Made by a program: the position numbers and the translations under genes. Below, piece by piece: positions 3 through 13,805 of a stretch of 13,805 nt of DNA. This DNA is from a virus. Taxonomy: Duplodnaviria; Heunggongvirae; Uroviricota; Caudoviricetes. The stretch lies in IMG/VR virus record IMGVR_UViG_2713896779_000020; one strand, written 5' to 3'. The stretch's first letter is position 1; each line of letters begins with the position of its first letter. Below the pieces are notes generated by a model, which ran no database searches, had not been told where the DNA came from, and saw nothing but the letters and a program-made list of their open reading frames with translations.

Positions 3-62
3 TGGCGGAAGCGCAGAGATTCGAACTCTGGAACCCTTTCGGGTCGCCGGTTTTCAAGACCG
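3..62 (-). other. Prophage attachment-site core: 3'-terminal 60 nt of tRNA-Ser(UGA) (serT-type); the 5' half of the tRNA is absent, so this is a partial copy, not a functional tRNA gene
   Basis: Reverse complement of 3-62 is CGGTCTTGAAAACCGGCGACCCGAAAGGGTTCCAGAGTTCGAATCTCTGCGCTTCCGCCA: anticodon loop CUUGAAA (anticodon UGA), long variable arm typical of tRNA-Ser, T-arm GGTTCGAATC and CCA end. The bases 5' of it on that strand (revcomp of 63-100) cannot form a D-arm or the acceptor 5' strand. It lies directly beside an integrase gene. Confidence 0.8.
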
Positions 63-203
63 AAGAAAAACAAATAAAAATCAGTGCAATACGTAAAATT
101 GCTGAAAAGTTAATCAAATTTAACACCAAGAAAAATCAAGGTATTAGGAAGTTGCTCATAGCTAGTATACCAAGTCTTTTTGCCAGAAATTTTTCTGGAT
201 TGT

Positions 204-1223
204 CTACTTGCTAACCACGAGCGGCAAATCCAGTGTTGGTGTGATTTTTGTTTTACGATCGTAAATCAACACCTGATTTTCTGTTTTATGCCCGCTGAAA
301 ATTTGTTTGTCGCGACTGCTGCCTTCGTAATCTGAGATCCCCTTGGCTTTTATGTCGTGAAAATTGCACCCGAACGGAACGCCAACTTTTTGCTCGGCTG
401 CGCGTTTAGCCTGATTCCACCAGTTATTCAGCGTTTTAGCTATGACTTTCCCGCCTTTGGTTGTATTGATCACATATTCGCATGTACAGGAAGATACATT
501 TCGGGCTAACTGGATCGCTGTACGTAATCGCGGTGACCATTCCTTGATTTGTTTGGTGCCGGTTTTGTTTTGCTCAATGTAGATCCCTTTATCCATAATA
601 TCCTGCCATTTCAACTCAAGCACATCACCGAGTCTTGCCGCACAGAGATAGGAAATCTCCATTGCAATGCGTAACTGTGGAATTGCTTCCGCATATATCG
701 CCGCATACTGTTCATCGGTGATGTAAACAGTGCGGGCTTTAAGAGAGAATTTTCTGACTCCTTTGCATGGGTTATTCTTCACATACCCACGCTCATATCC
801 CCACCCGTATACTCGACTCAGGCTTGCCAGTTCATGATTTGCCTGGGTCTTGCTCTCAAGCCCTCGTTTATCCATGAAAATTCTTACCTGCTCAGTTTTG
901 ACATTATCAGCAAGCACTTTTCCGAATACCATCAGCAACGCCTTCTGATGTTGTCGATAATCTTTTTGGGTTCGGGGGGCCAGTTCTGTAAATGCAGGGG
1001 AGTCCATAAACATGTGCCACAATTTAGCTACGGTCATTATGTTGTGGAGTTTTGCTTTTTCCAGTTCATAATTTTGCCAGACTTTATCTACGCTGGTTTT
1101 CCGCACTCTTCCTAGCCCTATACTTCTTGTACTTCCTTCGGGTTTCCACACGTAACTGTAACCATTCGATCTAACCCGCGGTGGCAGTACATTATCTTTT
1201 TTATTTTTTCTTGGTCTTCCCAT
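204..1223 (-). CDS. int: Phage integrase, tyrosine site-specific recombinase (339 aa)
   Basis: 339-aa ORF next to the tRNA-derived att core. The N-terminus is basic (MGRPRKNKK) and the C-terminal region has recombinase-like residues (ARLGDVLELKWQD ... FHDIKAKGISD ... VLIYDRK with a candidate catalytic Tyr). Family assignment is from memory and position. Confidence 0.85.
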   Translation of the reverse strand: MGRPRKNKKDNVLPPRVRSNGYSYVWKPEGSTRSIGLGRVRKTSVDKVWQNYELEKAKLHNIMTVAKLWHMFMDSPAFTELAPRTQKDYRQHQKALLMVFGKVLADNVKTEQVRIFMDKRGLESKTQANHELASLSRVYGWGYERGYVKNNPCKGVRKFSLKARTVYITDEQYAAIYAEAIPQLRIAMEISYLCAARLGDVLELKWQDIMDKGIYIEQNKTGTKQIKEWSPRLRTAIQLARNVSSCTCEYVINTTKGGKVIAKTLNNWWNQAKRAAEQKVGVPFGCNFHDIKAKGISDYEGSSRDKQIFSGHKTENQVLIYDRKTKITPTLDLPLVVSK

Positions 1224-1443
1224 TGTTCAGCGCCTCAAAATCGGGTTCAGCAGAAACCAGTTCAGATGTTTTTGGCATCGTTGTCAGACCGTGTGGAATA
1301 TCCCTGCGGAGAACTATGGGTTCGTTTTTAGGGCCGATTACAAATGGGATGCCGTGCAGTCTTAACTGGTGTTGCTGTTTTGTGTATCGCTCGTATTTCG
1401 TGATCTCTTTAATCTCTGCTGGAGATAGAGTTAATTCGTACAT
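1201..1443 (-). CDS. xis: Putative excisionase / small DNA-binding protein (80 aa), overlapping the integrase start
   Basis: Small ORF immediately upstream of int, overlapping it by 23 nt as in int-xis pairs. I chose the internal ATG at 1443 (MYELTLSPAEIKEI...) because the longer form starting at 1581 would overlap the 3' end of the exonuclease gene by about 70 nt. No recognisable motif, so the call is positional. Confidence 0.5.
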   Translation of the reverse strand: MYELTLSPAEIKEITKYERYTKQQHQLRLHGIPFVIGPKNEPIVLRRDIPHGLTTMPKTSELVSAEPDFEALNNGKTKKK

Positions 1444-1510
1444 GTGGTCACGTGCCTTTACAGCATGACCGCCGCCACTATAGCTGGTGGGCGGCGATAT
1501 GGGTTGAACA

Positions 1511-4236
1511 TCAAAAATCAGCCTGACTCGGGAGCAGTTTTTGCCAGATGGCTGAAACGTATTTCGCCTGGTAACGTGCATCGTTCAGAGCGTTATGGCG
1601 TTCACCTTCGAATGGAATAGTCGTTCTTGCGTCGAAATCCATCACCAGTCCCAGAGCAACCATCGTTCTTACATCGCGATCATTGGTGTAACGACATGGG
1701 CAGGGGATCCCCTGCCGTTCATATGAACGGCGTAAAATCACGTTGTCGAAAGTTGCACCGTTACCCCAGACCTGAACAAAAAATTCACCGGAGTTTTCGT
1801 CGATAAATTCCCGTAATTGCAGCAGTGCATCATCTAACGGGATTTCATCGGTAAGAATGGCGGATTGCGCTTCGCGTGACTGTTTCAGCCACCACTTAAT
1901 GGTGTCCCGATCAATGACTCCGCCAGCAGTTTCCAGATCGATAGTTTTGCTGAATTCTGGCCCCATCTCTCCGGTTTGCGGATCGAAAAATATTGCACCT
2001 ATTGAGATAATCGGGGCATCAGGATTTTTTCCCATTGTTTCAAGGTCAATCATCAGATGGTGCCACAACCTGCTGGTGGATGTAATTTCACGATGACCGT
2101 TCACCTTAATTAAGGGATTTGCTGTCTCGCCACTTTCATTATCTGTGGTGTGGTAGTGATCGCCGCCACTGCCTTCCATTTCCTCCTGAGCTTCAGCCTG
2201 ATTTTCTTCATCGAATGTTTCCTGGCAGGTTGCGTCGCCCATCACCGCGCCACAATCAGGGCAGTTGCCGCCACCACTCTGACCGCAGGCGGTACAGACT
2301 TTTTCCTCTTCCTGTTGCGCTACTGGTTCGGATTGTTTCGTTTCTGGCTCGTCTTGTAACGCATTTGGGCTGTTTTGTTCCGCTTTTTGGTCGTTCTGTT
2401 CCGTTTCTGACTGGTTCTGGTTCACAGAATCGCAGGTTTCAATCCCCTTCACCCATTTCGGATCATTCGGGTCGCTAATCCCTTCAACAAATTCACCACG
2501 TGATGCAGCAAGCAATTTATCGGCGTCAGGCTGGCTGATATTGGCTGCCTGCATAATTTTGTTTACTTCGTCAGCGGTAACTTTTACCGGCTCCGGTTGT
2601 ACGGAATCTTCAGCGGTATCCACATTTTGCGGTAAGTCCGTGTATGTTCCGTTTTTGCGGGCAAGATATTCTTCTTTCGTGATTTCAGTAGCCCCGGCAG
2701 CCAGCGCCTTGTCCAGACCAGAAAGTTTGTTTGCGCGACCGTATTTTTCGCCATCCTTGTCGGTGAAGAGGAANNNNNNNNNNNNNNNNNNNNNNNNNNN
2801 NNNNNNNNNNNNNNNNNNNNNNNGCTGATATTGGCTGCCTGCATAATTTTGTTTACTTCGTCAGCGGTAACTTTTACCGGCTCTGATTGTTCGGAATCTT
2901 CAGCGGTATCCACATTTTGCGGTAAGCCCGTGTATGTGCCATTTTTTCGGGCAAAATATTCTTCTTTTGAGATTTCGGTACCGCCGGCAGCCAGCGCCTT
3001 GTCCAGACCAGAAAGTTTGTTTGCCCTGCCGTATTTTTCCCCGCCCTTATCGGTAAAGACGAAATAAAATGGTCCTTCACGCTCTACAGATGGTTCAGCT
3101 TCCACCAGGATTTCATTTTTTTGAGTATCGGATTCTGCCGTCTCCACTGGAGCAGTTTGTGCTGCTGACGGCTGGAGAGCATCAGTAGAGCTCTGGTCTG
3201 TTTCTTCATGTTCAAACACGCCCTTTGTCGTCAGGTATTCACTGATATATTTGTTCAGTGCAACGGGATCTTTGTGAATATCGATCGGACGTTCGCGAAC
3301 AAGGCCAAAAATAGTCTGACGGTCATAGCCAAGTGCTTCGGGCTGTTTGCGCATTGATGCTGAGATACGCTTCCAGTCTTCGCGATCCTTGTCGATAACC
3401 TCATTTGTCGCCCAGCGATGGATGGTACCGTCAATGTTTCCTGCATCCACATCACCGGGCCAGAGGGCGCAGGCCAGTTCATTGTCGAGTGTTTTCCATG
3501 TCTGTTTGTATTCGCGGCGAATGGCAACAGTGACAGCCCCGGTTTTTTCAGCAGCGTTTTCAGTGTTCTGTTGGTTGACTCTGGCGCGGGTGAGATCAAC
3601 AACAGACGTGTATTTTCCGGTTTCCTTGCGTTCACCTTCGCGACGTTTTTTCCAGATGCGCATCTCTGCCTGAATTTCAGGCCATTTAGCGCCAGGCTCA
3701 CATTTATGCTTAACCCACCCGATGGCATGCAGTTTAAGTTCAGGATACATGGCGTTAACTTCTGGCATTTTCATCAACGCTTCAACGATATGTCCGCCGA
3801 ATGTTGCCATGTCTTCCTGTAGTAATTCCTGTGCGCTAATCACCATATCAACGGTGATGTTTTCGCATGTGTCGAATTTAACCAGGACTGCGTTCTGTAC
3901 TTCAGGGGACAGCTTGTCAAAATTGACGTTCATCGGATCGGATTCTGGTTCGACCGGTACAAAGGAAGCTGACTCCTCATCCCAGCGGTTTTCCTGCATA
4001 TATTCGGTATCCCAGGAATCGAGGGCAGGGCGGGGTATGCCGGGTTTATCCTCGCAGACAATAAATTTATAAGCGCAGTCCTGAGCTGCCGGGAATTGCT
4101 CCAGAAATTGCCAGTGAAATTTTGCGCGTGCGCGACGCTCATCACCGGCTTCAATGGCAGTGGCCACCGCAACAGCGCTATCTTCTTTTATGGCCTGTTC
4201 GTCAGGAATAGCAGCGCAAATAAAGATTTTACTCAT
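1511..4236 (-). CDS. Large phage exonuclease (annotated in related prophages as exodeoxyribonuclease VIII-like) with a C-terminal DEDD-type 3'-5' exonuclease domain; interrupted by a 50-N gap and a duplicated 240-bp segment
   Basis: The ORF-track pieces 2584-4236 and 1511-2623 share the peptide [30 protein letters not shown] in the two repeat copies. The C-terminal part shows the three DEDD motifs (MIDLETMG; [13 protein letters not shown]; [10 protein letters not shown]). If the two repeat copies are collapsed, the two pieces join in frame into one ORF of about 812 codons. The reading frame across the N-run cannot be verified. Confidence 0.6.
2534..3063. repeat. Imperfect 240-bp direct repeat (2534-2773 and 2824-3063) flanking the N-run
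   Basis: Both copies start GCTGATATTGGCTGCCTGCATAATTTTGTTTACTTCGTCAGCGG. Constant offset of 290 nt with no indels; by my hand count about 20 mismatches over 240 bp (roughly 90% identity). Confidence 0.9.
2774..2823. other. Run of 50 N (assembly or scaffold gap, or masked bases)
   Basis: Literal n characters in the sequence. Confidence 0.99.
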
Positions 4237-4329
4237 TGTGTTTTAACCTCATTACAGATTTAAGGGTGAACAAATCCCTGCCATTGCTGGCATATAAAAA
4301 TGAAACCGGATATTAATTACGGTGCTGTT

Positions 4330-4521
4330 TTAAAGTCCTGCCGGTATTTCGTTATTATTAGTGTGAGTAGTTTTATCTACCGGATAACAGTTACCGGGAA
4401 TTTTTTGTTCTGCTGCTGCAGCCATGCATTCTTTCATTGAACCGTATAAGCCAGTCACCAGCTCAAGAGATTCGCCGGAAACAAGATAAACTGTCAGAAC
4501 GAGTGCAAATGTTGTATTCAT
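4330..4521 (-). CDS. ydfD: Small membrane protein, YdfD-like (DUF1482-type), 63 aa
   Basis: 63-aa ORF directly downstream of dicB with a hydrophobic N-terminal segment (FALVLTVYLVSG) and a C-terminal KIPGNCYPVDK...EIPAGL. The size and position match ydfD of the Qin dicB locus as I recall it. Confidence 0.6.
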   Translation of the reverse strand: MNTTFALVLTVYLVSGESLELVTGLYGSMKECMAAAAEQKIPGNCYPVDKTTHTNNNEIPAGL

Positions 4522-4706
4522 TGTTTATATCCTTTTTGCAGCAGGTCCAGACGAGCCAGCATTGAAGGAATGCATACTTCATTTAACAGGTCCTGCTCGA
4601 GTTTTCTCTGCTTAATGGCGTCTTCAATAAATGTTTTGTCTCCAGTGATAACGCCAATTTCGAAACGAAGTTCAGACGTGCTGGCATTACATGATAACTT
4701 TTCCAT
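4518..4706 (-). CDS. dicB: Cell-division inhibitor DicB homologue (62 aa)
   Basis: The internal-ATG product MEKLSCNASTSELRFEIGVITGDKTFIEDAIKQRKLEQDLLNEVCIPSMLARLDLLQKGYKQ is the same length as E. coli K-12 DicB and shares its blocks (FEIGV, TEDAI..RK, SMLARL) as recalled. GAGGA ribosome-binding site 5' of the ATG. The longer track ORF (to 4814) would run into the dicF region. Confidence 0.8.
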   Translation of the reverse strand: MEKLSCNASTSELRFEIGVITGDKTFIEDAIKQRKLEQDLLNEVCIPSMLARLDLLQKGYKQ

Positions 4707-4885
4707 TATCGCGTCCTCAACAATGAATTTTGTGATGCGGTGCCTGGTGCCTTCAGGTGACGTTAACCAGTTAACAATTAACGCCGGATACAGAGCATTC
4801 TCGTTACTCAGCAAATGACCGCTTTACCGATTTAACTGTTCCGCGTGCGCTGAGCCGCATTCACCGCATCACAAAATTCACTTTT

Positions 4886-4944
4886 AAAAAAGGGCGGCAG
4901 AGCAGTCACGGAGTAAAACTGATACCGCCAAATGTCACCAGAAT
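4886..4944 (-). ncRNA. dicF: DicF small RNA homologue with intrinsic terminator tail
   Basis: The minus strand reads ATTCTGGTGACATTTGGCGGTATCAGTTTTACTCCGTGACTGCTCTGCCGCCC followed by TTTTTT. This differs at only two positions from the 53-nt K-12 DicF sequence as I remember it, and it lies directly upstream of dicB as in Qin. Confidence 0.85.
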
Positions 4945-5279
4945 ATTGATAACAGAGGGCGTTGCAGCGGGGTTGTCACTTAAGCGTATGGTCAACCTGA
5001 CAACCCGGTGTCCTCAACGGGGAAAGAATAACCCCGCCATACTTACCGCCGCGCCATTTCGCGGATTGCCACAACCGGAAGCGCACGGTCGAATTAAATT
5101 TAACGACGGCTCTAAGGGAGAAGGACTTCGCCGTGCACTTTCGTGTTATGCCCTGACTTTTCAGGGATATATCCTTTCAGTAAACTGTCAGTGCCGGATT
5201 CTTATCTGTGTCCGGCGCACGACCACACGTAGCAGCGTGTTGGTCTCCATTTTTAATTCAGCCCTTAATGGAGGATAAA

Positions 5280-5465
5280 ATGCCAAACAAACCATGCCCT
5301 GCCTGTAACGCTCTTTCTGGCTTTTTAGAGAAGGGCGGTTATTACATTTTTAACTGTCCAGAACATGTTGAATTTCATATATCAAAACTTGACAGTATCA
5401 TTACAAAGCCAAATCAGTATCAGTCTGATTTACTGAATAAAGAGTTAAACGCCGCCCGAGATTAA
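5280..5465 (+). CDS. Small zinc-ribbon protein, Lar/RalR-like (restriction-alleviation family), 61 aa
   Basis: GGAGG ribosome-binding site 6 nt before the ATG at 5280. Product MPNKPCPACNALSGFLEKGGYYIFNCPEHVEF... has a C-x2-C ... GYY ... C-x2-H pattern resembling the KPCPFCG...GYY...C-x2-C arrangement of Rac RalR/Lar as recalled. It is on the opposite strand to the surrounding operon. Confidence 0.5.
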   Translation: MPNKPCPACNALSGFLEKGGYYIFNCPEHVEFHISKLDSIITKPNQYQSDLLNKELNAARD

Positions 5466-5502
5466 GGGCGTAGTGGCCCATTAAAAATATTGCAAAGACC
5501 AA

Positions 5503-6041
5503 CTATTGTTGAACTGGATTAAACCAGTAATTCTCTATTGCTCTTATTGTTACCATCGGATGATTGCCGGGGGTTATTTTAAGTTCGGGAGGAAAAGGCT
5601 CTCCATCAGCAGCCATCATTGAGTATGTGAAATCCGCCGACGCAGTCCCTTTCATGATAATTCCGAATTTTTCAAGTAATGAGAGCAGTTCCGGTAATCC
5701 TGTGTCATCTGAATAACTTTCCTCATAGAAAGAAGCGATTGCCGCAGGAGATGACAGTTCTCGCTCTGCAATTTTTTTGTAGTTTTCCAGAATTCTTTTT
5801 TTGAATACTTTTCCTCGACATGAAAACCCATCACCGAGGCAATCCGCTTTGCAGTTTCTTCAGTATTCTGGTTGTTTGTTACCGAAACAGAGTACAATCC
5901 GGTAAACGCATCGCGCACATTACGAGCCATATTATCAATGTATTTCTTCGTTGCAGATTCTAATTCAACTTCGTTCAGACGTTGGTGAAGTGCATGTGCT
6001 GCAATTTCCTGGATTTCTTTTAGTAAATCTTTAAATTCCAT
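5503..6041 (-). pseudogene. Hypothetical protein gene with a -1 frame change: the N-terminal frame (track ORF 5652-6041, 129 aa) continues in the -1 frame to a stop at 5503-5505; either a frameshift, a homopolymer sequencing error or programmed slippage
   Basis: GGAG ribosome-binding site before the ATG at 6041. After the A7 run (plus-strand T7 at 5796-5802) the annotated frame turns into low-quality sequence (LQSENCHLLRQSLLSMRKV...), while the -1 frame reads a protein-like 95 aa with no start codon (...KKRILENYKKIAERELSSPAAIASFYEESYSDDTGLPELLSLLEKFGII...NPVQQ*). Total span is 539 nt, consistent with one frame change. Confidence 0.5.
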
Positions 6042-6052
6042 CTTTAACTCCG

Positions 6053-6181
6053 TTAGTCGTTAGATTTTGCCGAACTGGAAAGCGCCTGTTTAAACTCACT
6101 GAAGCTGAGAGCTTCCTCGCCTTCGGCAAGGCCTTCGAAGTATTCTTCGTAAGCCTTTTCCATGATTGTGTCGAAATCCAT
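6053..6181 (-). CDS. ydfB: Small acidic protein, YdfB-like (42 aa)
   Basis: ORF below the 60-aa track threshold, found by hand: MDFDTIMEKAYEEYFEGLAEGEEALSFSEFKQALSSSAKSND. AGGTGA ribosome-binding site; the start is 1 nt after the ydfA-like stop. Size and position match ydfB of Qin as recalled. Confidence 0.5.
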   Translation of the reverse strand: MDFDTIMEKAYEEYFEGLAEGEEALSFSEFKQALSSSAKSND

Positions 6182-6182
6182 A

Positions 6183-6338
6183 TCACTCACCTGAGTTTCT
6201 TTCCAGCCAGCGACGGGCACCATTTTCGGTTTTAAACGTTTTGCTTTTGGTATACGTCATCGCGGTGAATGTACCGTCCTGGTTGGGAAACACGCCGTAC
6301 ACCAGAGATTCGTTGTTGCCAAGATCGATAGTATCCAT
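6183..6338 (-). CDS. ydfA: Small protein, YdfA-like (DUF1391-type), 51 aa
   Basis: Internal ATG at 6338 with a GAGG ribosome-binding site gives MDTIDLGNNESLVYGVFPNQDGTFTAMTYTKSKTFKTENGARRWLERNSGE. It is the first gene after the leftward promoter; size and position match ydfA of Qin as recalled. Confidence 0.5.
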   Translation of the reverse strand: MDTIDLGNNESLVYGVFPNQDGTFTAMTYTKSKTFKTENGARRWLERNSGE

Positions 6339-6519
6339 GTTGACCTCATTTCCCCTTAACGCCGGGTAGCGGAACAAAAACCTGCTGCATAGTTATTAAA
6401 GTTGAACCCTGCCGTCATGTTCATACGCCTCGGGCTGGCTACTTACCCCCTGACCACTGCCTGGTAACTCGAAGTATTGCCCGGCGTTCTGTGGGGCGGG
6501 GTGGGTGGTTGGTGTATGT

Positions 6520-6562
6520 AATCTACAATTAAAAACTGTTTTGTGTCAACAGTTTTTAATTG
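6520..6562 (-). promoter_or_regulatory. Leftward early promoter (PL-like) with overlapping palindromic operator for the ydfA-ydfB-dicF-dicB operon
   Basis: Minus strand: -35 TTGACA (6549-6544), 18-bp spacer, -10 TAGATT (6525-6520). It is embedded in a perfect palindrome CAATTAAAAACTGTT-N7-AACAGTTTTTAATTG (6526-6562). Confidence 0.55.
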
Positions 6563-6573
6563 TTGTTTTGGGC

Positions 6574-6595
6574 AAAAAAATCCCTCGAAAGAGGG
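6574..6595 (-). terminator. Intrinsic terminator ending the repressor-antitoxin-toxin operon
   Basis: The minus strand reads CCCTC-TTTC-GAGGG followed by A-TTTTTTT, located 20-40 nt downstream of the parE-type stop. Confidence 0.5.
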
Positions 6596-6614
6596 AGTAT
6601 GAAAATTGTTCAAC

Positions 6615-6902
6615 TCAGATAGAGAAGGGAAATTGTCGCCGAGAATGTGTCACGCTTACAATCTCAATGCTTGAAGCAGCTACTCTGTACAGGATTATGT
6701 AGTTAGGGTGGGTCACGATCTCTCTCAATCCAGAAACCCGTTCGCTTGGTGGATATAAGTACGGATGCTCAGATAGAGGTAATACCGATGTTTCAATGCG
6801 TATTTTTAGTCTACGTGCTGCCGGTGGGTTCTCCTTGGCGATGTAAGTTATGATCTGGCGCAAATCATCGCGAGCAGACGGTAGCCATAAAATGGGTAAC
6901 AT
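6615..6902 (-). CDS. parE: Type II toxin, RelE/ParE family (ParE2-like), 95 aa
   Basis: MLPILWLPSARDDLRQIITYIAKENPPAARRLKIRIETSVLPLSEHPYLYPPSERVSGLREIVTHPNYIILYRV... fits the ParE pattern as recalled. The start overlaps the antitoxin stop (TAATG). Confidence 0.7.
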   Translation of the reverse strand: MLPILWLPSARDDLRQIITYIAKENPPAARRLKIRIETSVLPLSEHPYLYPPSERVSGLREIVTHPNYIILYRVAASSIEIVSVTHSRRQFPFSI

Positions 6903-7093
6903 TACTCGCTCTTGTTAGTTACAGCAATTTGAGCAATAAGATTTTCCATTTCAGCCATTACCTCGTCATGTGGAATTGCGGGGCGAGTGTCTGCAAGGCT
7001 TGACGTTACTTTAGTGCGCAACCATTCGTTGTAACTGTTTTCTTGTTCGGTAGTTTCGAATTCTGAAACTATCGGAGAAAGGGCTGTACCCAT
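6902..7093 (-). CDS. paaA2: Antitoxin, PaaA2-like (ParE-associated antitoxin), 63 aa
   Basis: MGTALSPIVSEFETTEQENSYNEWLRTKVTSSLADTRPAIPHDEV... closely matches the PaaA2 sequence of E. coli O157 as I recall it (ALSPMVSEFETIEQENSYNEWLRAKV..SLAD.RPAIPHDEV). GAGGAG ribosome-binding site; immediately upstream of the toxin. Confidence 0.65.
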   Translation of the reverse strand: MGTALSPIVSEFETTEQENSYNEWLRTKVTSSLADTRPAIPHDEVMAEMENLIAQIAVTNKSE

Positions 7094-7120
7094 GGCATAA
7101 CTCCTCTTCTTGTACTGTGG

Positions 7121-7522
7121 TCACGCCCGGCGGCTTTTTTGTGCCGCCAGCCACCTAGCAATGGTTTCTTCCATTGATTTTTTCTTGTCTTTGATTTCTT
7201 GAAGCATTTTTTCTTGGTCTTCCTCAGGAAACGCACTAAAAGCTTGGAGCAGTTCGCGTTGGCGAGGACCAATTTTCATCGTGTCAGGGGTGAAAATTTG
7301 CTCACACTCTTCAGGAGGCAATAAAAACCAATGCAATGGATGCCCTGAAACCTCAACCAGTTTATCCAAACTTGAGGCTTTAGGTGTAGCCTTACCGCTG
7401 ACCCATTGTTGAACAGTTTGTTGTGTCACACCAATTCTACGGGCAAGCTCAGCCTGGCTCCATCCAGTTTCCTGAAGAAGCTTGCTGATTCTGTACATAG
7501 ATACTTCTAGGGCGCTCATCAT
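7121..7522 (-). CDS. HTH_XRE transcriptional regulator, DicA/PaaR2-like; candidate prophage repressor
   Basis: Helix-turn-helix SQAELARRIGVTQQTVQQWVSGK near the N-terminus. First gene of the operon with the antitoxin and toxin, and divergent from the cro-like gene. The start is ambiguous: 7522 (MMSALEV...) or the internal ATG at 7498 (MYRISKLLQETGW...), the latter giving a more typical HTH N-terminus. Confidence 0.7.
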   Translation of the reverse strand: MMSALEVSMYRISKLLQETGWSQAELARRIGVTQQTVQQWVSGKATPKASSLDKLVEVSGHPLHWFLLPPEECEQIFTPDTMKIGPRQRELLQAFSAFPEEDQEKMLQEIKDKKKSMEETIARWLAAQKSRRA

Positions 7523-7563
7523 TATTCAATTTTACAGGTAAATACTGTTAAAAGCACCACAAT

Positions 7564-7602
7564 AAAAAACTGTTGATTGCATACAGTTTTTTATTGTAGG
7601 CT
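7564..7602 (+). promoter_or_regulatory. Rightward early promoter (PR-like) with overlapping operator, paralogous to the leftward unit
   Basis: AAAAAACTGT-N9-ACAGTTTTTT inverted repeat (7564-7592); -35 TTGATT (7573-7578), 18-bp spacer, -10 TAGGCT (7597-7602). An extra half-site ACTGTT lies at 7544-7549. GGAGG ribosome-binding site at 7621-7625 before the cro-like ATG. Confidence 0.5.
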
Positions 7603-7630
7603 TTGCTTATAGTTTTTAGAGGAGGGCAAA

Positions 7631-7903
7631 ATGCTAGATAGCACTCGCGAAAAAATTAGGCAGAAATACACTCAGGCTGAAATAGGTCGTTATATGGGGG
7701 TCGCTCAACAGACTGTTTGGCAATGGTTTAGCTTTGGCGTTCCCCCAAAGCAGGTAATTCCGTTATGCCAACTAATGAAGTGGGAAGTTACCCCGCATGA
7801 AATCCGCCCAGATATTTATCCTAACCCAACCGACGGTTTACCTGTTGGATGTAAGGTTAACACATCAAATGCGCCGGAGTTGATTCATGAAAATCAAGCA
7901 TGA
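7631..7903 (+). CDS. Cro/YdaS-like small HTH protein (90 aa)
   Basis: Divergent from the repressor. Helix-turn-helix GRYMGVAQQTVWQW. Strong ribosome-binding site. Confidence 0.7.
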   Translation: MLDSTREKIRQKYTQAEIGRYMGVAQQTVWQWFSFGVPPKQVIPLCQLMKWEVTPHEIRPDIYPNPTDGLPVGCKVNTSNAPELIHENQA

Positions 7904-8312
7904 ACACATCCGCATGGCGATGAATGCCTGGGCGCATCCGGACGGCGAAAAAGTACCGGCTGCGAAAATTACCAAAGCGTATTTCGAGCTGGGAATGACG
8001 TTCCCGGAACTGTATGACGACAGCCATCCGGAAGCCATGGCTCGCAATACTCAGAAAATTTTCCGCTGGGTGGAGAAAGACACTCCTGATGCGGTTAAAA
8101 AAATTCAGGCGTTGTTACCAGCGATCGAAAAAGCGATGCCGCCTCCGCTGGTGGCCCGAATGCGCAGCCACAGTTCCGCTTATTTTCGGGAGTTGGTAGA
8201 GACGAAGGAACGGCTGGTGAAAGATATTGATGATTTCGTTGCATCAGCGATCGTTCTGTTCGATCAGATGAATCGTGGTGGCCCGGCAGGAAACACTCTG
8301 GCTGTGCATTAA
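7887..8312 (+). CDS. ydaT: YdaT-like protein (141 aa)
   Basis: The N-terminus MKIKHEHI matches my recollection of Rac YdaT, and it has the same position after the cro-like gene. Its start overlaps the cro-like stop by 17 nt. Confidence 0.5.
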   Translation: MKIKHEHIRMAMNAWAHPDGEKVPAAKITKAYFELGMTFPELYDDSHPEAMARNTQKIFRWVEKDTPDAVKKIQALLPAIEKAMPPPLVARMRSHSSAYFRELVETKERLVKDIDDFVASAIVLFDQMNRGGPAGNTLAVH

Positions 8313-8325
8313 TTGGGTAATAAAT

Positions 8326-8835
8326 ATGAGTAATGACAAAAAATTGACACTGAGCGTTTACGAAAACAGTCCGCACATCTGGCGTGGCGGTTTATCTGAT
8401 GTGGAGCTGGCAGAGTGGTTGATACATAAAGCTAATGCGCTGCTCTGGCGTTTGTCAGCCAGAGAACAGCGCAAGGAAACCAGAATAAAGCTGGCTGATG
8501 CAGAAGCGTGTGCCGGGCTTATTGAGGATTATACAAATCTTGGTATTTCTTCAGCAGAGAGTGATCCCATTCAGCCTCTGAGCAGGGAGTCAATCCAGCA
8601 CGCTGGTTGTATGGCACATCTTGTAACTGCTCGTCAACATGAGGTGGGTATTGGATCACTTCCGGTGGGATATTCGCTGATTCCAGAGCTGGTTGAAGCA
8701 AGAAAATCAGTTCAGAAAAAGAGAGATGACGCACTTCAATTATTGAGAGAGCACTATGGCGCGATACCAGAATGCGAACAGCATCGATACCCTGAAGGTT
8801 ATGAATGGATGCAGTCTCTTTTTGAAGTTCGCTAA
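8326..8835 (+). CDS. Hypothetical protein (169 aa from the internal ATG)
   Basis: I chose ATG 8326 (MSNDKKLTLSVYENSPHIWRGG...) rather than the track start at 8275, which overlaps ydaT-like. No motif recognised. Confidence 0.5.
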   Translation: MSNDKKLTLSVYENSPHIWRGGLSDVELAEWLIHKANALLWRLSAREQRKETRIKLADAEACAGLIEDYTNLGISSAESDPIQPLSRESIQHAGCMAHLVTARQHEVGIGSLPVGYSLIPELVEARKSVQKKRDDALQLLREHYGAIPECEQHRYPEGYEWMQSLFEVR

Positions 8836-8941
8836 TCAATATGTCGAGACGAAGGTATGTTTCGGCGCGCAGCCAGGCTCTGTAATCCGGGAGCATTTCG
8901 GGGCTGTTACACCAGCGGTTTGTTGCTGCAACATTTAATAC

Positions 8942-10226
8942 ATGAGCCTGATAAAGGCTTTTCAAAAAATACATGTCGAACCTCCTCTGGTTCTGTCGAT
9001 TGGGAACCACAGATTATATCCGGAGGAAGGTTCGGCACCAGATGAGGTAGCCATGCGTGATTACGCAAAAGTTTCTCCGCGATTCTGGCTGGGAGAAACG
9101 GGGAGAGAACTTAGAAAGGCGGGTGCAGAAGCGCAAGTTGTTGCTTTTTACCTGATGACATCCCCTCACGCAAATATGCTGGGTTTGTATTACCTGCCAG
9201 TTTTATACCTTGCTCATGAAACCGGGCTTGGTCTGGAAGGGGCTTCAAAGGGGCTTAAAAGGGCTGTTGAAGCTGGTTTTTGTAGCTATGACCATGATGC
9301 AGAGATGGTCTGGGTCCATGAAATGGCAGCCTGGCAGGTTGGGGAAACGTTGAAGCCTGGCGATAACCGTTGTGCAGGTGTCAGGAATGAGTATGCATCA
9401 TTACCTGAAAACGCTTTTCTGTCAGTGTTTTACGACAGATATAAAACGGATTTCCATCTGGATGTGAGGCGGAATAATAGCCGAAATTCGGTAAGGGGCT
9501 TCGAAGGGGCTTTTAAGGGGCTTCGAAGCCAAGAACAGGAACAGGAGCAGGAGAAAGAACAGGAACAGGACAAAAACACTATGGTTCATGGCAAAAAAAA
9601 CACCACGAACCAGGCAGGGGATGTTCAGACCGTCAATCCTGGTCAGCCAGCAGGCACGACACCGNNNNNNNNNNNNNNNNNNNNNNNNNNNNNNNNNNNN
9701 NNNNNNNNNNNNNNAAGCCGATTCAGCGTATGCGCTGAAAGCCGATTCGGGCGCTGTGCAGCAGGTGATGACCGCAGGGTCGGAGCAATCACACCAACTG
9801 CAGCAGCCTGAAGCCGATTCCGCCATTCAGCGGGAAGCCGATCGGGTAGTCCCGGAAAGCACCGGGCAGTCTGTGGGACGAGTGGATTATCCGGATGTGT
9901 TCGAACAGGTCTGGCGGGAATACCCGTTGCGTGCTGGGGCAAACCCGAAGAAATCCGCTTTCAGTGCCTGGAAGGCCAGATTGCGCGAGGGGGTGCCACC
10001 AGAGACCATGCTGGATGGTGTGAGGCGTTACGCGAGATACCTGGCGGCGACCGGGAAAGCGGGAACGGAATTTGTTCAGCGAGCGACGACGTTTTTTGGG
10101 CCGGACCGGAATTTTGAAAACCCCTGGTTGCTCCCGGTAAGCGGCACGAACAACCAGCGTTGTGTGAATCATATTTCTGAACCGGATACCGAAATTCCGC
10201 CGGGATTCAGGGGTGATGTGGCATGA
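8942..10226 (+). CDS. Replication-initiation (O-like / YdaU-type) protein with a low-complexity linker; interrupted by a 50-N run
   Basis: Track ORFs 8942-9811 and 9588-10226 are each protein-like only on their own side of the gap (N-terminal part before it, C-terminal part ...DYPDVFEQVWREYPLRAGANPKKSAFSAWKARL... after it). The stop overlaps the start of the DnaC-like gene (ATGA). Single-gene status across the gap is an inference. Confidence 0.5.
9237..9523 (+). repeat. Two clusters of three phased direct repeats AAGGGGCTT (11-bp period) inside the replication gene; candidate iterons
   Basis: Cluster 1 copies start at 9237, 9248 and 9259 (the third is degenerate). Cluster 2 copies start at 9493, 9504 and 9515. 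Confidence 0.6.
9665..9714. other. Run of 50 N (assembly or scaffold gap, or masked bases) inside the replication gene
   Basis: Literal n characters. The flanks are repeat-rich: (GAACAG)n at 9531-9572 and AAGCCGATTC-type repeats at 9715-9844. Confidence 0.99.
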
Positions 10227-10963
10227 AAAACATTGCGGCAGCCGGGGTTCTTGAACGTATTCGCAGACTTGCACCACAGGCGTCGGTTCCACCGTACCGG
10301 ACGGTGGAGGAGTGGCGGGAATGGCAACTTGCTGAAGGACGAAAACGCAGCGAGGAGATTAACCGCCAGAATCACCAGTTGCGGGTGGAAAAAATCCTGA
10401 ATCGTTCGGGCATCCAGCCTCTGCACAGCAAATGCTCGTTTGCGAATTATCAGGTGCAGAACGACGGGCAAAAATACGCGCTGAGCCAGGCCAAATCCAT
10501 AGCTGACGAACTGATGACCGGGTGCACGAATTTTGTGTTCAGCGGTAAAACCGGCACCGGGAAAAATCACCTTGCAGCGGCGATGGGTAACCGGCTGATG
10601 GCGAAGGGGCGCAGCGTGATTATCGTCACCGTGTCTGATGTCATGAGCGTGTTGCATGACAGCTACGACAACGGCAAATCCGGGGAAAAATTTTTACAGG
10701 AGCTTTGCAGTGTTGATTTGCTGGTCCTGGATGAAATAGGCGTTCAGCGGGAGACGAAAAACGAGCAGGTGGTATTACACCAGATAATTGATCGCCGGAC
10801 AGCATCACTGTGCAGTGTCGGGATGTTAACAAACCTGAATCATGCCGCAATGAGTACACTTCTTGGTGAGAGGATTATGGACCGCATGACCATGAACGGT
10901 GGTCGATGGGTGACGTTTAACTGGGATAGCTGGCGGTCAAACGTTGGACGTCAGGGTATGTGA
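10223..10963 (+). CDS. DnaC-like helicase loader / IstB-type AAA+ ATPase (246 aa)
   Basis: Walker A FSGKTGTGKNHLA and Walker B LLVLDEIG. Start overlaps the stop of the preceding replication gene, typical of O-P-like pairs. Confidence 0.85.
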   Translation: MKNIAAAGVLERIRRLAPQASVPPYRTVEEWREWQLAEGRKRSEEINRQNHQLRVEKILNRSGIQPLHSKCSFANYQVQNDGQKYALSQAKSIADELMTGCTNFVFSGKTGTGKNHLAAAMGNRLMAKGRSVIIVTVSDVMSVLHDSYDNGKSGEKFLQELCSVDLLVLDEIGVQRETKNEQVVLHQIIDRRTASLCSVGMLTNLNHAAMSTLLGERIMDRMTMNGGRWVTFNWDSWRSNVGRQGM

Positions 10964-10988
10964 GAATTTTTGACGAGGTAAATTTTCG

Positions 10989-11759
10989 ATGGAAACTGTA
11001 TTGCATGCACTGAAAGCGATGGGAAAAGCCAATTCTGTTGAACTGGCGGCGCGGCTTGATATCAGCCGTGAAGAAGTTCTTAACGAACTGTGGGAACTCA
11101 AAAAAAATGGCGTTGTTGATAAAACGGGTCACACCTGGTTTCTGGCTGGCGAAGGTGAATCCCGGGTAACCGAAGAGCGGCCAGTAAAATCTGAAGCACA
11201 GGATATGCTGACCGGGGAGGTCGAACAAAAAGTTACCGCAGACATGATGATTGAGTTTATCGGTCAGGATGGGGCTAAAACGTGTGAGGAACTGGCGGGT
11301 AAGTTCGGTGTCAGTACTCGCAAGGTTGCTTCCACGCTGGCGGTGGTAACCGCAACGGGGCGGCTGGCACGCGTTAATCAGAACGGTAAATTTCGTTACT
11401 GCATGCCGGGCGATAATTTACCAGCAGAGCCGAAAGCCGCGCTGGTAACGGAAAGTGATGGTAAGGCCTTTCCTCAGCCAGCAGGTGCTGCGTTACCAGT
11501 CCGGGAAGCCGCAACACAGGAAGAAATTAAAACAGAAACTGTGGCGGACATTGTGCAGCCGTTGCCATCGTTTACCGAAACGCAAGCAGATGAGCTGATT
11601 TTTCCGTCCCTTCGCAGGGCAAACCTGGCGCTGCGCAGGGCGAAAAGTGATGTTCAGAAGTGGGAGCGAGTCTGCGCCGCGCTGCGGGAGCTGAACAAGC
11701 ACCGGGATATTGTTCGACAGATTACTGATTCTTCCCGCCGTGTTGTATCGGAAAAGTGA
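10989..11759 (+). CDS. Hypothetical protein with an N-terminal winged-helix-like region (256 aa)
   Basis: Full-length ORF with even coding composition. N-terminus [27 protein letters not shown] resembles a winged helix. Function unknown. Confidence 0.6.
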
Positions 11760-11774
11760 TTGCCGGAGGCGCTT

Positions 11775-12188
11775 ATGGCAAAAGTATTTACACAGGAAGA
11801 GCGGGAAAAAATTAAAGGGCAGGTTGTTGAGCTAGTACGCCGGAGTGGGCGCGAGACGTTACGGCAACTGGAAGCCAAGACAGGTGCGACAAGATATCTG
11901 ATGAGCGTTCTTGCCAGAGAGCTGGTTGCCAGTGGCGATGTATACAACTCTGGTTACGGGTTATTCCCATCTGAACAGGCTCGTAAGGACTGGCAAAACG
12001 CCCGCAAAAAACTATCGAGGGCAAAACTGAAGAAACCGGTTGTGGTTGATCCTGACCTTATCTGGTCATTACCAGACGGAGAAATACGCCGCTATGACAG
12101 GCAATTGAACATAATTTGTAGTGAGTGCCGTAACAGTGAAGTGATGCAGCGAGTTTTGATATTTTACACAGGAGTAATGATGGAATAG
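11775..12188 (+). CDS. Hypothetical protein (137 aa)
   Basis: GGAGG ribosome-binding site 5 nt before ATG 11775 (MAKVFTQEEREK...); the track start at 11760 lacks a ribosome-binding site. Function unknown. Confidence 0.55.
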   Translation: MAKVFTQEEREKIKGQVVELVRRSGRETLRQLEAKTGATRYLMSVLARELVASGDVYNSGYGLFPSEQARKDWQNARKKLSRAKLKKPVVVDPDLIWSLPDGEIRRYDRQLNIICSECRNSEVMQRVLIFYTGVMME

Positions 12189-12539
12189 TGAAAATAACAT
12201 GAAACCTTTGGATTCTGGTGTTTCAGTGGATGGGAAAAGAGCAGATACATAGAAAATGAATAGCAATAATTCACAGTCTGGATGTTGTTTGTATGCTTAT
12301 AAAATGATCCTAGTATGCATTGCCGGAGTTGAATCAGCTCCAATGAAGAAACTGAGAGGAGTATTTAGAAGATAGCTAAATGGATGTAATTATTAGTATC
12401 TAAAAAATAGTATTTTTGAAATGGGTCTAAGAACACAACAATGTACAAATGAGAAGTTATCTTTTAATATGTTCAAAGACCCATTAGGATTGATATCAGT
12501 TATGTTAGCTAGATTGATAAAGTGATTACATATTTTCTG

Positions 12540-13313
12540 TTATATGCTGAAATGAATAATGCTATTCCAGAGTGCAGCAGAGAAAGTCTCCTGATGATTG
12601 AGCTCTGGAAATTGTACAATAGAAAAATTACTGTATTTTTCTGTCAAAATATTTCTCAAAACAGATTCCGCTTTGATGGCTTCAGGATATAAAGATGCGG
12701 AGTAATCAAGGCTAAGATTTCCGTTAAGCAAGCATATACTTTTAGTGTGCTTTGATTCTGATATATCATCTTTAATTATCTTGATGATTCTTTCATTCTG
12801 CCATAGAAGTGATGGTGCAGATATATAATAATAGTTAAAGCATGAATTATTTTTTAAGCAATCAAGCACAAAAATAGCACCTAGCGAGTGCCCACATATA
12901 CCGATTCTGGAACTGTTCGGAGCAATAGTACTAACCCATGGCATGATCTGAGTTAGTAATAATTCTCGGAAAGACTGGCTTCCTCCACCAGTAAAGTAGA
13001 TCCATGCTGGTTTAGAGTTATCAACAATAGCATTTTCACCATCAGGAGTATAATCGTAAGCACGGCGATGAATGCTAAGGTTATTCCAAGATTCATAACC
13101 AAGTGTAACTAACACTGGTGGATTGGGTAGTGCATCAATAACAGGCAGAATATCAGAAATGTAATTGTTGGCACTATTCCCATCAAGTATATAAAGAGTT
13201 GCATTATTTTTTTTAATGTTTTTTGGAGTAAAAATACATATTTTATATTTGGTGTCATGGTTAATTGAGTTAAATATGCGTGTTTGACAATGAATGTCCA
13301 TATGTTTAGTCAT
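12540..13313 (-). CDS. Alpha/beta-hydrolase-fold esterase-family protein (257 aa) in an AT-rich island
   Basis: Serine-hydrolase nucleophile elbow GHSLGA (GxSxG) with upstream LDGNS and GGGSQSF blocks resembling the putative-esterase family (Fes/IroE/esterase D type). GGAGA-like ribosome-binding site. The gene and its flanks look markedly more AT-rich than the rest of the window (by eye, not computed). Confidence 0.7.
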   Translation of the reverse strand: MTKHMDIHCQTRIFNSINHDTKYKICIFTPKNIKKNNATLYILDGNSANNYISDILPVIDALPNPPVLVTLGYESWNNLSIHRRAYDYTPDGENAIVDNSKPAWIYFTGGGSQSFRELLLTQIMPWVSTIAPNSSRIGICGHSLGAIFVLDCLKNNSCFNYYYISAPSLLWQNERIIKIIKDDISESKHTKSICLLNGNLSLDYSASLYPEAIKAESVLRNILTEKYSNFSIVQFPELNHQETFSAALWNSIIHFSI

Positions 13314-13805
13314 GCGTTCTCCCCATGAGCATTAAAGGATGCTTAAGATATGCTATGTCACTGATAAAAAATTTGTTGTGTGTGTTTAGTTATTTTATCT
13401 ACCTCCATTATGATTTAAGACTGATATATGTTATCAGCAAAGGTACATCGTTATTATTTTACCTGTCAATACATTTGATATTGATTATCGTTTACATCGC
13501 TTGCTTAGGAAATTGAAGGCAGGTAACTATCATGTCAATGAACTAACCCACAGTCTAACGTACTTCTTTCCCCAATCACCAACAACCAAATTCCTGTTAT
13601 CACCACTGGGATTTTGGCGCAACTTCATGGTGCAGAGGTAAATAGCATCAAGCAAAATCTCTTTTTCCGTTGTTGTCCTTATGGGACGTCTGTCTTTCTG
13701 ACCGATTTCATATTGGCGAGGTAATGGGAAGTTAAGTAGAATAGCTGCGGGTGCTTGAGGCTATCTGCCTCGGGCATGAACACCAACGGCAGATAGAGAA
13801 AAGCC

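Follow-up and report, generated by a model that had tools for sequence, protein, structure and literature searches.

The 129-codon open reading frame (ORF) at positions 6041 to 5652 of the minus strand most probably represents a genuine, inherited frameshift allele of a longer prophage gene, in which a run of eight A residues (A8) has been shortened to seven (A7) and in which any return to the old frame is an incidental leak rather than evolved recoding; we place the probability of this reading at about 0.8. The window analyzed here is the whole 13,805-nt stretch of IMG/VR record IMGVR_UViG_2713896779_000020, which is a lambdoid prophage of Shiga-toxin-producing Escherichia coli (STEC). The ORF opens with the ATG at 6041, ends at a TGA (5654 to 5652), and is listed in RefSeq as hypothetical protein WP_000394511.1, without a pseudogene mark.

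Two A7 runs lie within this ORF. The original prediction singled out the first of them (5796 to 5802, minus strand), where the zero frame reads TAT TCA AAA AAA GAA, and it had both the sequence and the position right. It also mentioned a second run (5772 to 5778, minus strand), which is indeed present, 24 nt past the first, and reads ACA AAA AAA TTG; both runs are in phase as A_AAA_AAA. The −1 frame is open to 5503, as had been predicted: it extends from 5859 to a stop at 5505 to 5503, leaving a shared open stretch of ~207 nt (5859 to 5652) in which translation could return to the old frame. The two products would be 129 and 179 amino acids (aa) long. The longer one would result from a −1 slip at the first run (82 + 97 = 179 aa) and equally from one at the second; the slip at the second run restores the ancestral sequence exactly, and the slip at the first leaves eight changed residues (RILENYKK in place of EFWKTTKK). 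Matches to A7 were not enriched in the window (11, compared with 9.9 ± 4.3 in shuffled sequences), and both runs in the gene are simply NNA-Lys-Lys spelled with the preferred AAA codon.

The frame break in comparison with intact orthologues

A search with the conceptual 179-aa fusion returned uninterrupted orthologues of 177 to 186 aa that covered 100% of it at 61 to 91% identity. We compared 11 intact orthologue alleles codon by codon at the DNA level, a comparison that had been proposed at the outset as a way of telling a contiguous ORF from a conserved frameshift. All 11 were single ORFs, and the frameshift is thus not conserved. The intact proteins read ...KYSKKEFWKT(T/A)KK-IAERELSS...; their codons track the zero frame of the window across the first run and for eight codons beyond it and enter the present −1 frame at the second run. 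In protein alignments, the C-terminal part of the orthologues lines up with the translated remnant.

Relative to the four closest intact alleles (L002, L005, L007, and L010, the last from strain A19), the sole indel is one A in the second run, where ACA/GCA AAA AAA ATT (A8) has become ACA AAA AAA TTG (A7). Strain A19 has a finished genome (NZ_CP028756), in which the coding sequence is annotated as intact. Because the only indel relative to these four alleles is the A8/A7 difference at the second run, the DNA alignments indicate that the lesion is a one-base contraction of the A8 tract at 5772 to 5778 and not an event at 5796 to 5802. The original prediction therefore identified the right gene and the right frames but located the break at the wrong run, having noted the second one only in passing. 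Its option of a genuine pseudogene is supported, in that there are intact orthologues with one uninterrupted ORF, from which the window departs by a 1-nt homopolymer contraction.

The locus can be divided at the second run. Codons 1 to 90 (6041 to 5772, minus strand), ending in ...SKKEFWKTTKK, form the native N-terminal part, as judged from the orthologue alignment, a PHROG scan, and AlphaFold2 secondary structure of low confidence. They are followed in the present product by an out-of-frame tail (5771 to 5652, minus strand), which frame translation and the orthologue alignment identify as 39 missense codons (LQSENCHLLRQSLLSMRKVIQMTQDYRNCSHYLKNSELS; peptides LQSENCHLLR and QSLLSMR), closed by the TGA. 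Of the ancestral C terminus, 89 codons and their stop (5772 to 5503, minus strand; IAERELSS…WFNPVQQ*) survive as a remnant in what is now the −1 frame. This remnant segment is homologous to the C-terminal part of the intact relatives, and the C-frame tryptic peptide of the remnant frame is ELSSPAAIASFYEESYSDDTGLPELLSLLEK. A single indel in a homopolymer, which is heritable (see below) and is followed by a segment homologous to the C terminus of relatives, would class the allele as a homopolymer frameshift as far as sequence comparison can do so.

Residue 163 is R or K in intact orthologues and M in the window, and we considered this substitution as a possible sign of relaxed constraint on the remnant. 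The idea was dropped. Two draft assemblies encode the exact A8-restored protein, namely, P0154 (O111:H11 strain CVM9534) and P0158 (O157:H7 strain SE18018), and both of these proteins also carry M163; the change from R/K to M may therefore predate the deletion and cannot be used as evidence of relaxed constraint.

Searches of Pfam, NCBIfam, PADLOC, and PDB profiles gave nothing significant for either the intact or the truncated protein, and a literature search for “ybl81,” the source name used for relatives of the gene, found no papers. The protein matched only PHROGs of unknown function. Its N-terminal ~75 residues are common to several of these (phrog_2151, 9419, 6937, and 33007), of which phrog_2151 is a 212-aa family with a different C terminus and phrog_9419 (64 positions) is little more than the N-terminal domain. 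PHROG 1363 (139 positions) aligns to the present product over its entire 129-residue length, the 39 missense residues included, and this profile evidently encodes the frameshift artifact. An AlphaFold2 model built on a 19-sequence alignment was unreliable overall (mean pLDDT, 49.6), with an N-terminal helical hairpin (residues 1 to 55) at a pLDDT of ~70 to 79. The truncated product keeps the N-terminal domain and may retain part of the function.

Recoding signals and expected products

Formally, the layout of the locus could also reflect functional recoding, in which a programmed −1 slip at either or both of the A_AAA_AAA heptamers, or an A inserted during transcription, yields useful 129-aa and 179-aa products. 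We regard this as improbable, although several features would suit it. Slippery X_XXY_YYZ sites in phase with the zero frame occur at TC[A AAA AAA] (5802 to 5796) and AC[A AAA AAA] (5778 to 5772), both lead into the same long frame, and an SD-like GAGG lies 10 nt upstream of the first, an arrangement that is superficially similar to that of dnaX. A −1 shift at the second run would produce a protein identical to P0154, and frameshifting of 10% has been obtained in E. coli with an A7 cassette (PMC3711429). Moreover, the allele is abundant and its remnant frame is undamaged (see below), and the existence of relatives limited to the N-terminal domain (phrog_9419) makes a two-product logic conceivable.

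The comparison with orthologues, however, argues against a programmed signal. The family consists of single ORFs, only one nearly clonal allele has the two-ORF arrangement, and the combination of heptamer and two-frame layout was not conserved among the 11 divergent intact alleles. The first site is TCA AAA AAA in seven of these alleles and TCG AAA AAA in the other four; because TCA and TCG vary among orthologues, the key base of the first heptamer drifts like any other synonymous position. At the second site, A8 is limited to the E. coli subclade, and elsewhere the site reads GCC AAA CGC, GCC AAA AGA, GCC AGG GCA, or GCC AAA AAA; Salmonella-type alleles lack the second run. The subclade with the longest homopolymer is the one that was hit by the indel, which fits the expectation for replication slippage. 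The stimulators of a programmed site are an SD-like element 6 to 17 nt upstream, a stable hairpin or pseudoknot 5 to 9 nt downstream, or both. Across alleles, the presence of the GAGG element is independent of the heptamer, and the second run has no SD-like element upstream of it. A hairpin can be drawn 5 nt past the second run, but the 60-nt fold (−14.6 kcal/mol) was no better than those of shuffled sequences (z = −0.56), and the other downstream segments gave z values of −0.31 and +0.54; by this measure, none of the downstream folds stood out as a significant stimulatory structure. Transcriptional realignment typically involves an A/T run of at least 9 nt that is conserved at the ORF junction, whereas the run here is not conserved and, at 7 nt, falls short of the ~9 nt from which many genomes show prominent transcriptional slippage (PMC1088944). 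Finally, the adjoining gene is also truncated by mutation. The evidence is against a programmed signal, and nothing suggests that the frameshift is programmed; the proposal of programmed frameshifting with two products was accordingly not borne out.

E. coli dnaX has an A_AAA_AAG heptamer, an upstream SD-like element, and a downstream stem-loop. The locus described here resembles it in having an in-phase lysine heptamer, with GAGG upstream of the first run, but the heptamer ends in A and not G, the downstream region has no significant stem-loop, and the arrangement is not conserved in orthologues. Moreover, the shift in dnaX shortens the product, whereas a shift here would lengthen it. The earlier assignment of the first run to the dnaX class of slippery sites is apt with regard to the in-phase A_AAA_AAA, but a programmed site there is not supported, given that the heptamer is not where the frame broke and that its first base varies (TCA/TCG). 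In the −1 frameshifting of the transposase genes orfA-orfB in IS1- and IS3-family elements, the same heptamers (A_AAA_AAA or A_AAA_AAG) are used and an upstream domain is fused to a downstream domain. Throughout those families, both the stimulators and the layout with two ORFs are conserved (PMC4066793), whereas the norm in the present family is a single ORF.

The A tracts lie at the boundary between the conserved N-terminal and the variable C-terminal domain, and it is conceivable, if unlikely, that they set the ratio of products, with A8 giving mostly full-length protein and a little truncated N-terminal product and A7 giving mostly N-terminal domain and a few percent full-length protein. 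The full-length share from A7 would then come from −1 slippage at the two tandem heptamers or from addition of an A by RNA polymerase. If this were true, selection would have favored a two-product state in the abundant STEC allele, which would then not be a dead gene.

For the preferred reading, an inherited frameshift allele with an incidental leak, we propose the following course of events. Replication slippage would have removed one A from the A8 tract, converting ACA AAA AAA ATT to ACA AAA AAA TTG at 5778 to 5772. Most ribosomes would then terminate at 5652 and yield a 129-aa product composed of 90 native and 39 missense residues, and the ancestral C-terminal 89 codons (5772 to 5503) would mostly go untranslated. 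Some leakage to the 179-aa form would be expected because there are two in-phase A_AAA_AAA heptamers and because the old frame is open from 5859; it would come either from ribosomes slipping by −1 without a programmed signal or from an extra A added by RNA polymerase. E. coli has a single, shift-prone tRNA-Lys(UUU), which decodes lysine heptamers, and such a leak would be favored for this reason. By analogy with published reporters, the full-length protein might make up a small share of the product, roughly 0.1 to 10%. A_AAA_AAA without stimulators gives more than 0.1% frameshifting, with motif/background ratios of 2 to 10 over a background of 0.055% (PMC4066793), one A7 cassette gives the 10% cited above, and single-base-pair deletions show aggregate suppression of 1 to 10% (PMC10861913). 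Transcriptional insertions of single A residues are concentrated in A/T runs (PMC5574713).

In these respects the locus resembles the homopolymer frameshift pseudogenes or truncated alleles of prophages for which “leaky” rescue has been described (Baranov et al., 2005, PMC1088944; Springstein et al., 2024, PMC10861913). As in those cases, a single-base indel in an A run distinguishes the allele from intact orthologues, the remnant is recognizable, and the frame could be restored by one added A in the mRNA or by a −1 slip. The homopolymer cases of Baranov et al. (2005; PMC1088944) involve 9-nt runs, whereas the run here is 7 nt; rescue at this locus is proposed by analogy.

A different route to the ancestral C terminus would be a split gene, in which the 129-aa product ends at the TGA and ribosomes re-initiate at an overlapping ATG (ATGA, 5655 to 5652) to make the last 50 ancestral residues, with an N terminus of MKGTASADF…. 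The overlap between this ATG (5655 to 5653) and the zero-frame TGA (5654 to 5652) has the geometry of translational coupling, and a weak GGA is found 6 nt upstream of the ATG. The resulting 50-aa ORF (5655 to 5503, minus strand), which lies within the remnant, has been called as a gene in some records (P0168; BAI31074.1, among others) and is found on 659 contigs. In addition, the family conserves the Met encoded by the ATG as an internal residue (IIM[KT]GTA). However, the ATGA overlap is a by-product of the ancestral internal Met codon and the shifted frame. Moreover, there was no sign that the 50-aa fragment folds or acts alone, and the AlphaFold2 model of the region was unreliable (pLDDT of <50). 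We consider a split gene very unlikely.

Distribution of the A7 allele and of other tract lengths

Using a 91-nt query that spans both runs, we searched 5426 complete E. coli genomes. The stretch was found in 385 of them and was exactly A7/A7 in 383. Synthetic A8 and A6 versions of the query had no exact matches among the complete E. coli genomes, and at least one of the two genomes without an exact A7/A7 match differs by a substitution and not by tract length. The downstream 269 nt were present in 386 genomes, with at least 99% identity in 385; the divergent copy was that of A19 (94%), which is also the only allele known to be intact among these 386 genomes. The same A7/A7 allele was found on eight IMG/VR prophage contigs, and more than 2000 contigs have a record of the 129-aa protein. 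Carriers of the A7 allele include O157:H7, O121:H19, O103, and O45:H2 strains and isolates from pig, fish, and cattle. The lesion is heritable and is near fixation in the STEC prophage lineage.

The remnant frame has gained no stop and no further indel. Three or four variants were seen in the old frame, of which one is synonymous and two or three are nonsynonymous. The persistence of nearly identical copies may reflect only the youth of the allele and its horizontal spread; abundance and an undamaged remnant frame would also be expected if a long product still mattered.

Tract lengths other than A7 occur in public assemblies. An A6 version (L008; GCA_008122345.1) is otherwise identical in sequence, and the two draft assemblies that encode the A8-restored protein (P0154 and P0158) may represent the immediate ancestor, revertants, or homopolymer miscalls. 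Two copies from a single IMG genome (648276671; L026 and L027) differ from each other only at three homopolymers (A7/A6, A8/A7, and AA/AAA); these differences look like homopolymer miscalls of the pyrosequencing type, and they call for caution regarding rare A6 and A8 alleles.

The existence of A6, A7, and A8 versions of one haplotype raises the possibility of phase variation, in which the A tract is a contingency locus and replication slippage switches the C-terminal domain on (A8) or off (A7 or A6). Slipped-strand mispairing is accepted to act on A/T homopolymers of 7 nt or more (PMC3711429). Frequent tract polymorphism would be expected of such a locus, however, and active phase variation is quite unlikely because 383 of the 385 finished genomes that carry the stretch have A7. 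In addition, the rare A6 and A8 versions sit in draft assemblies, where homopolymer miscalls of the kind seen in L026 and L027 are common, and the protein looks cytoplasmic and not like a surface antigen. As for the error in sequencing or assembly of a homopolymer that the original prediction also entertained, with a true A8 tract and an intact gene, the window does come from a draft scaffold (50 Ns at 9665 to 9714) and does contain an odd imperfect duplication in its exonuclease gene, but this explanation can be dismissed in view of the identical A7/A7 sequence of 383 independently finished genomes from many laboratories and of the eight IMG/VR contigs, which make the allele independent of the assembly of the window.

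Prophage setting and annotation

Positions 2824 to 9664 and 9715 to 13805 of the window are 100% identical to the sequence of O121:H19 strain 16-9255, and many genomes, O157:H7 and O103 among them, carry the locus itself at 100% identity. The operon order is HTH repressor, RelB/RelE, ydfA (DUF1391), ydfB, the 129-aa gene, a small convergent gene, DicF, dicB, DUF1482, exonuclease, and integrase. The RelB/RelE-ParE type II toxin-antitoxin pair (6615 to 7093, minus strand) lies between the HTH repressor gene and ydfA. A DicA-like repressor is encoded at 7121 to 7522. The DicF small RNA was identified with Rfam (4892 to 4943, minus strand; 77 bits) and is followed by dicB and a DUF1482 gene (4518 to 4706, minus strand). 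DicF, dicB, and the DUF1482 gene confirm that this is an early operon of the Qin/dicB type.

In this operon, the 129-aa gene occupies the “ydfC slot,” between ydfA/ydfB and DicF/dicB. The architecture and the slot are those of the ydfA-ydfB-ydfC-dicF-dicB operon of the K-12 Qin prophage. YdfC (72 aa), which fills this slot in K-12, was considered as a homologue and rejected, since its sequence is unrelated. Against the INPHARED phage collection, the query had matches only at its ydfA/ydfB end, and the gene was found in no sequenced phage of that collection.

The convergent gene (5280 to 5465, plus strand) encodes a Cys-rich protein (CPAC…CPEH) that is cut to 61 aa, compared with 80 aa in relatives, as judged from alignment, annotation, and the 80-aa calls in L002, L005, L007, and L092. 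Relative to L002, L005, and L007, the cause is a nonsense change of TCA to TAA at 5463 to 5465. In relatives, the convergent gene overlaps the 3′ end of the 179-aa gene by ~20 nt. A nonsense mutation in this neighbor, in the same lineage, fits mutational decay of the accessory region.

The finding is an ordinary one, a widespread frameshift allele of an uncharacterized prophage gene, and it opens no new question. It is chiefly of use in annotation: the last 39 residues of WP_000394511.1 are an out-of-frame tail, and the 50-aa downstream ORF reported by some pipelines is a fragment of the ancestral 179-aa gene. For work on the accessory genes of the dicB operon in EHEC prophages, the reference form should be an intact allele, such as that of A19 (NZ_CP028756) or P0001/P0002. 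Beyond annotation, the locus offers a convenient, naturally occurring example in which unprogrammed rescue of a one-base deletion could be studied at two A_AAA_AAA heptamers in tandem.

Several other features of the window were observed. The 50 Ns fall within the “DNA-binding protein” gene of the replication region, at a point where the O121:H19 reference has just one base, and the window is for this reason assigned to a scaffolded draft assembly. The YdfE-type exonuclease gene (1511 to 4236, minus strand) is one 2472-nt coding sequence in the O121 and O157 references and is split in the window into ORFs at 2584 to 4236 (550 aa) and 1511 to 2623 (370 aa). The split is attributed to an imperfect 240-nt direct repeat (2534 to 2773 and 2824 to 3063; 91% identical) beside a segment, 2186 to 2773, whose identity to the reference is only 87%; either paralogous prophages have recombined here or the assembly is chimeric. 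Further 8-nt homopolymers occur at 9593 to 9600 (A8), 11100 to 11107 (A8), and 13207 to 13214 (T8), in or near the coding regions of the replication module and the alpha/beta-hydrolase.
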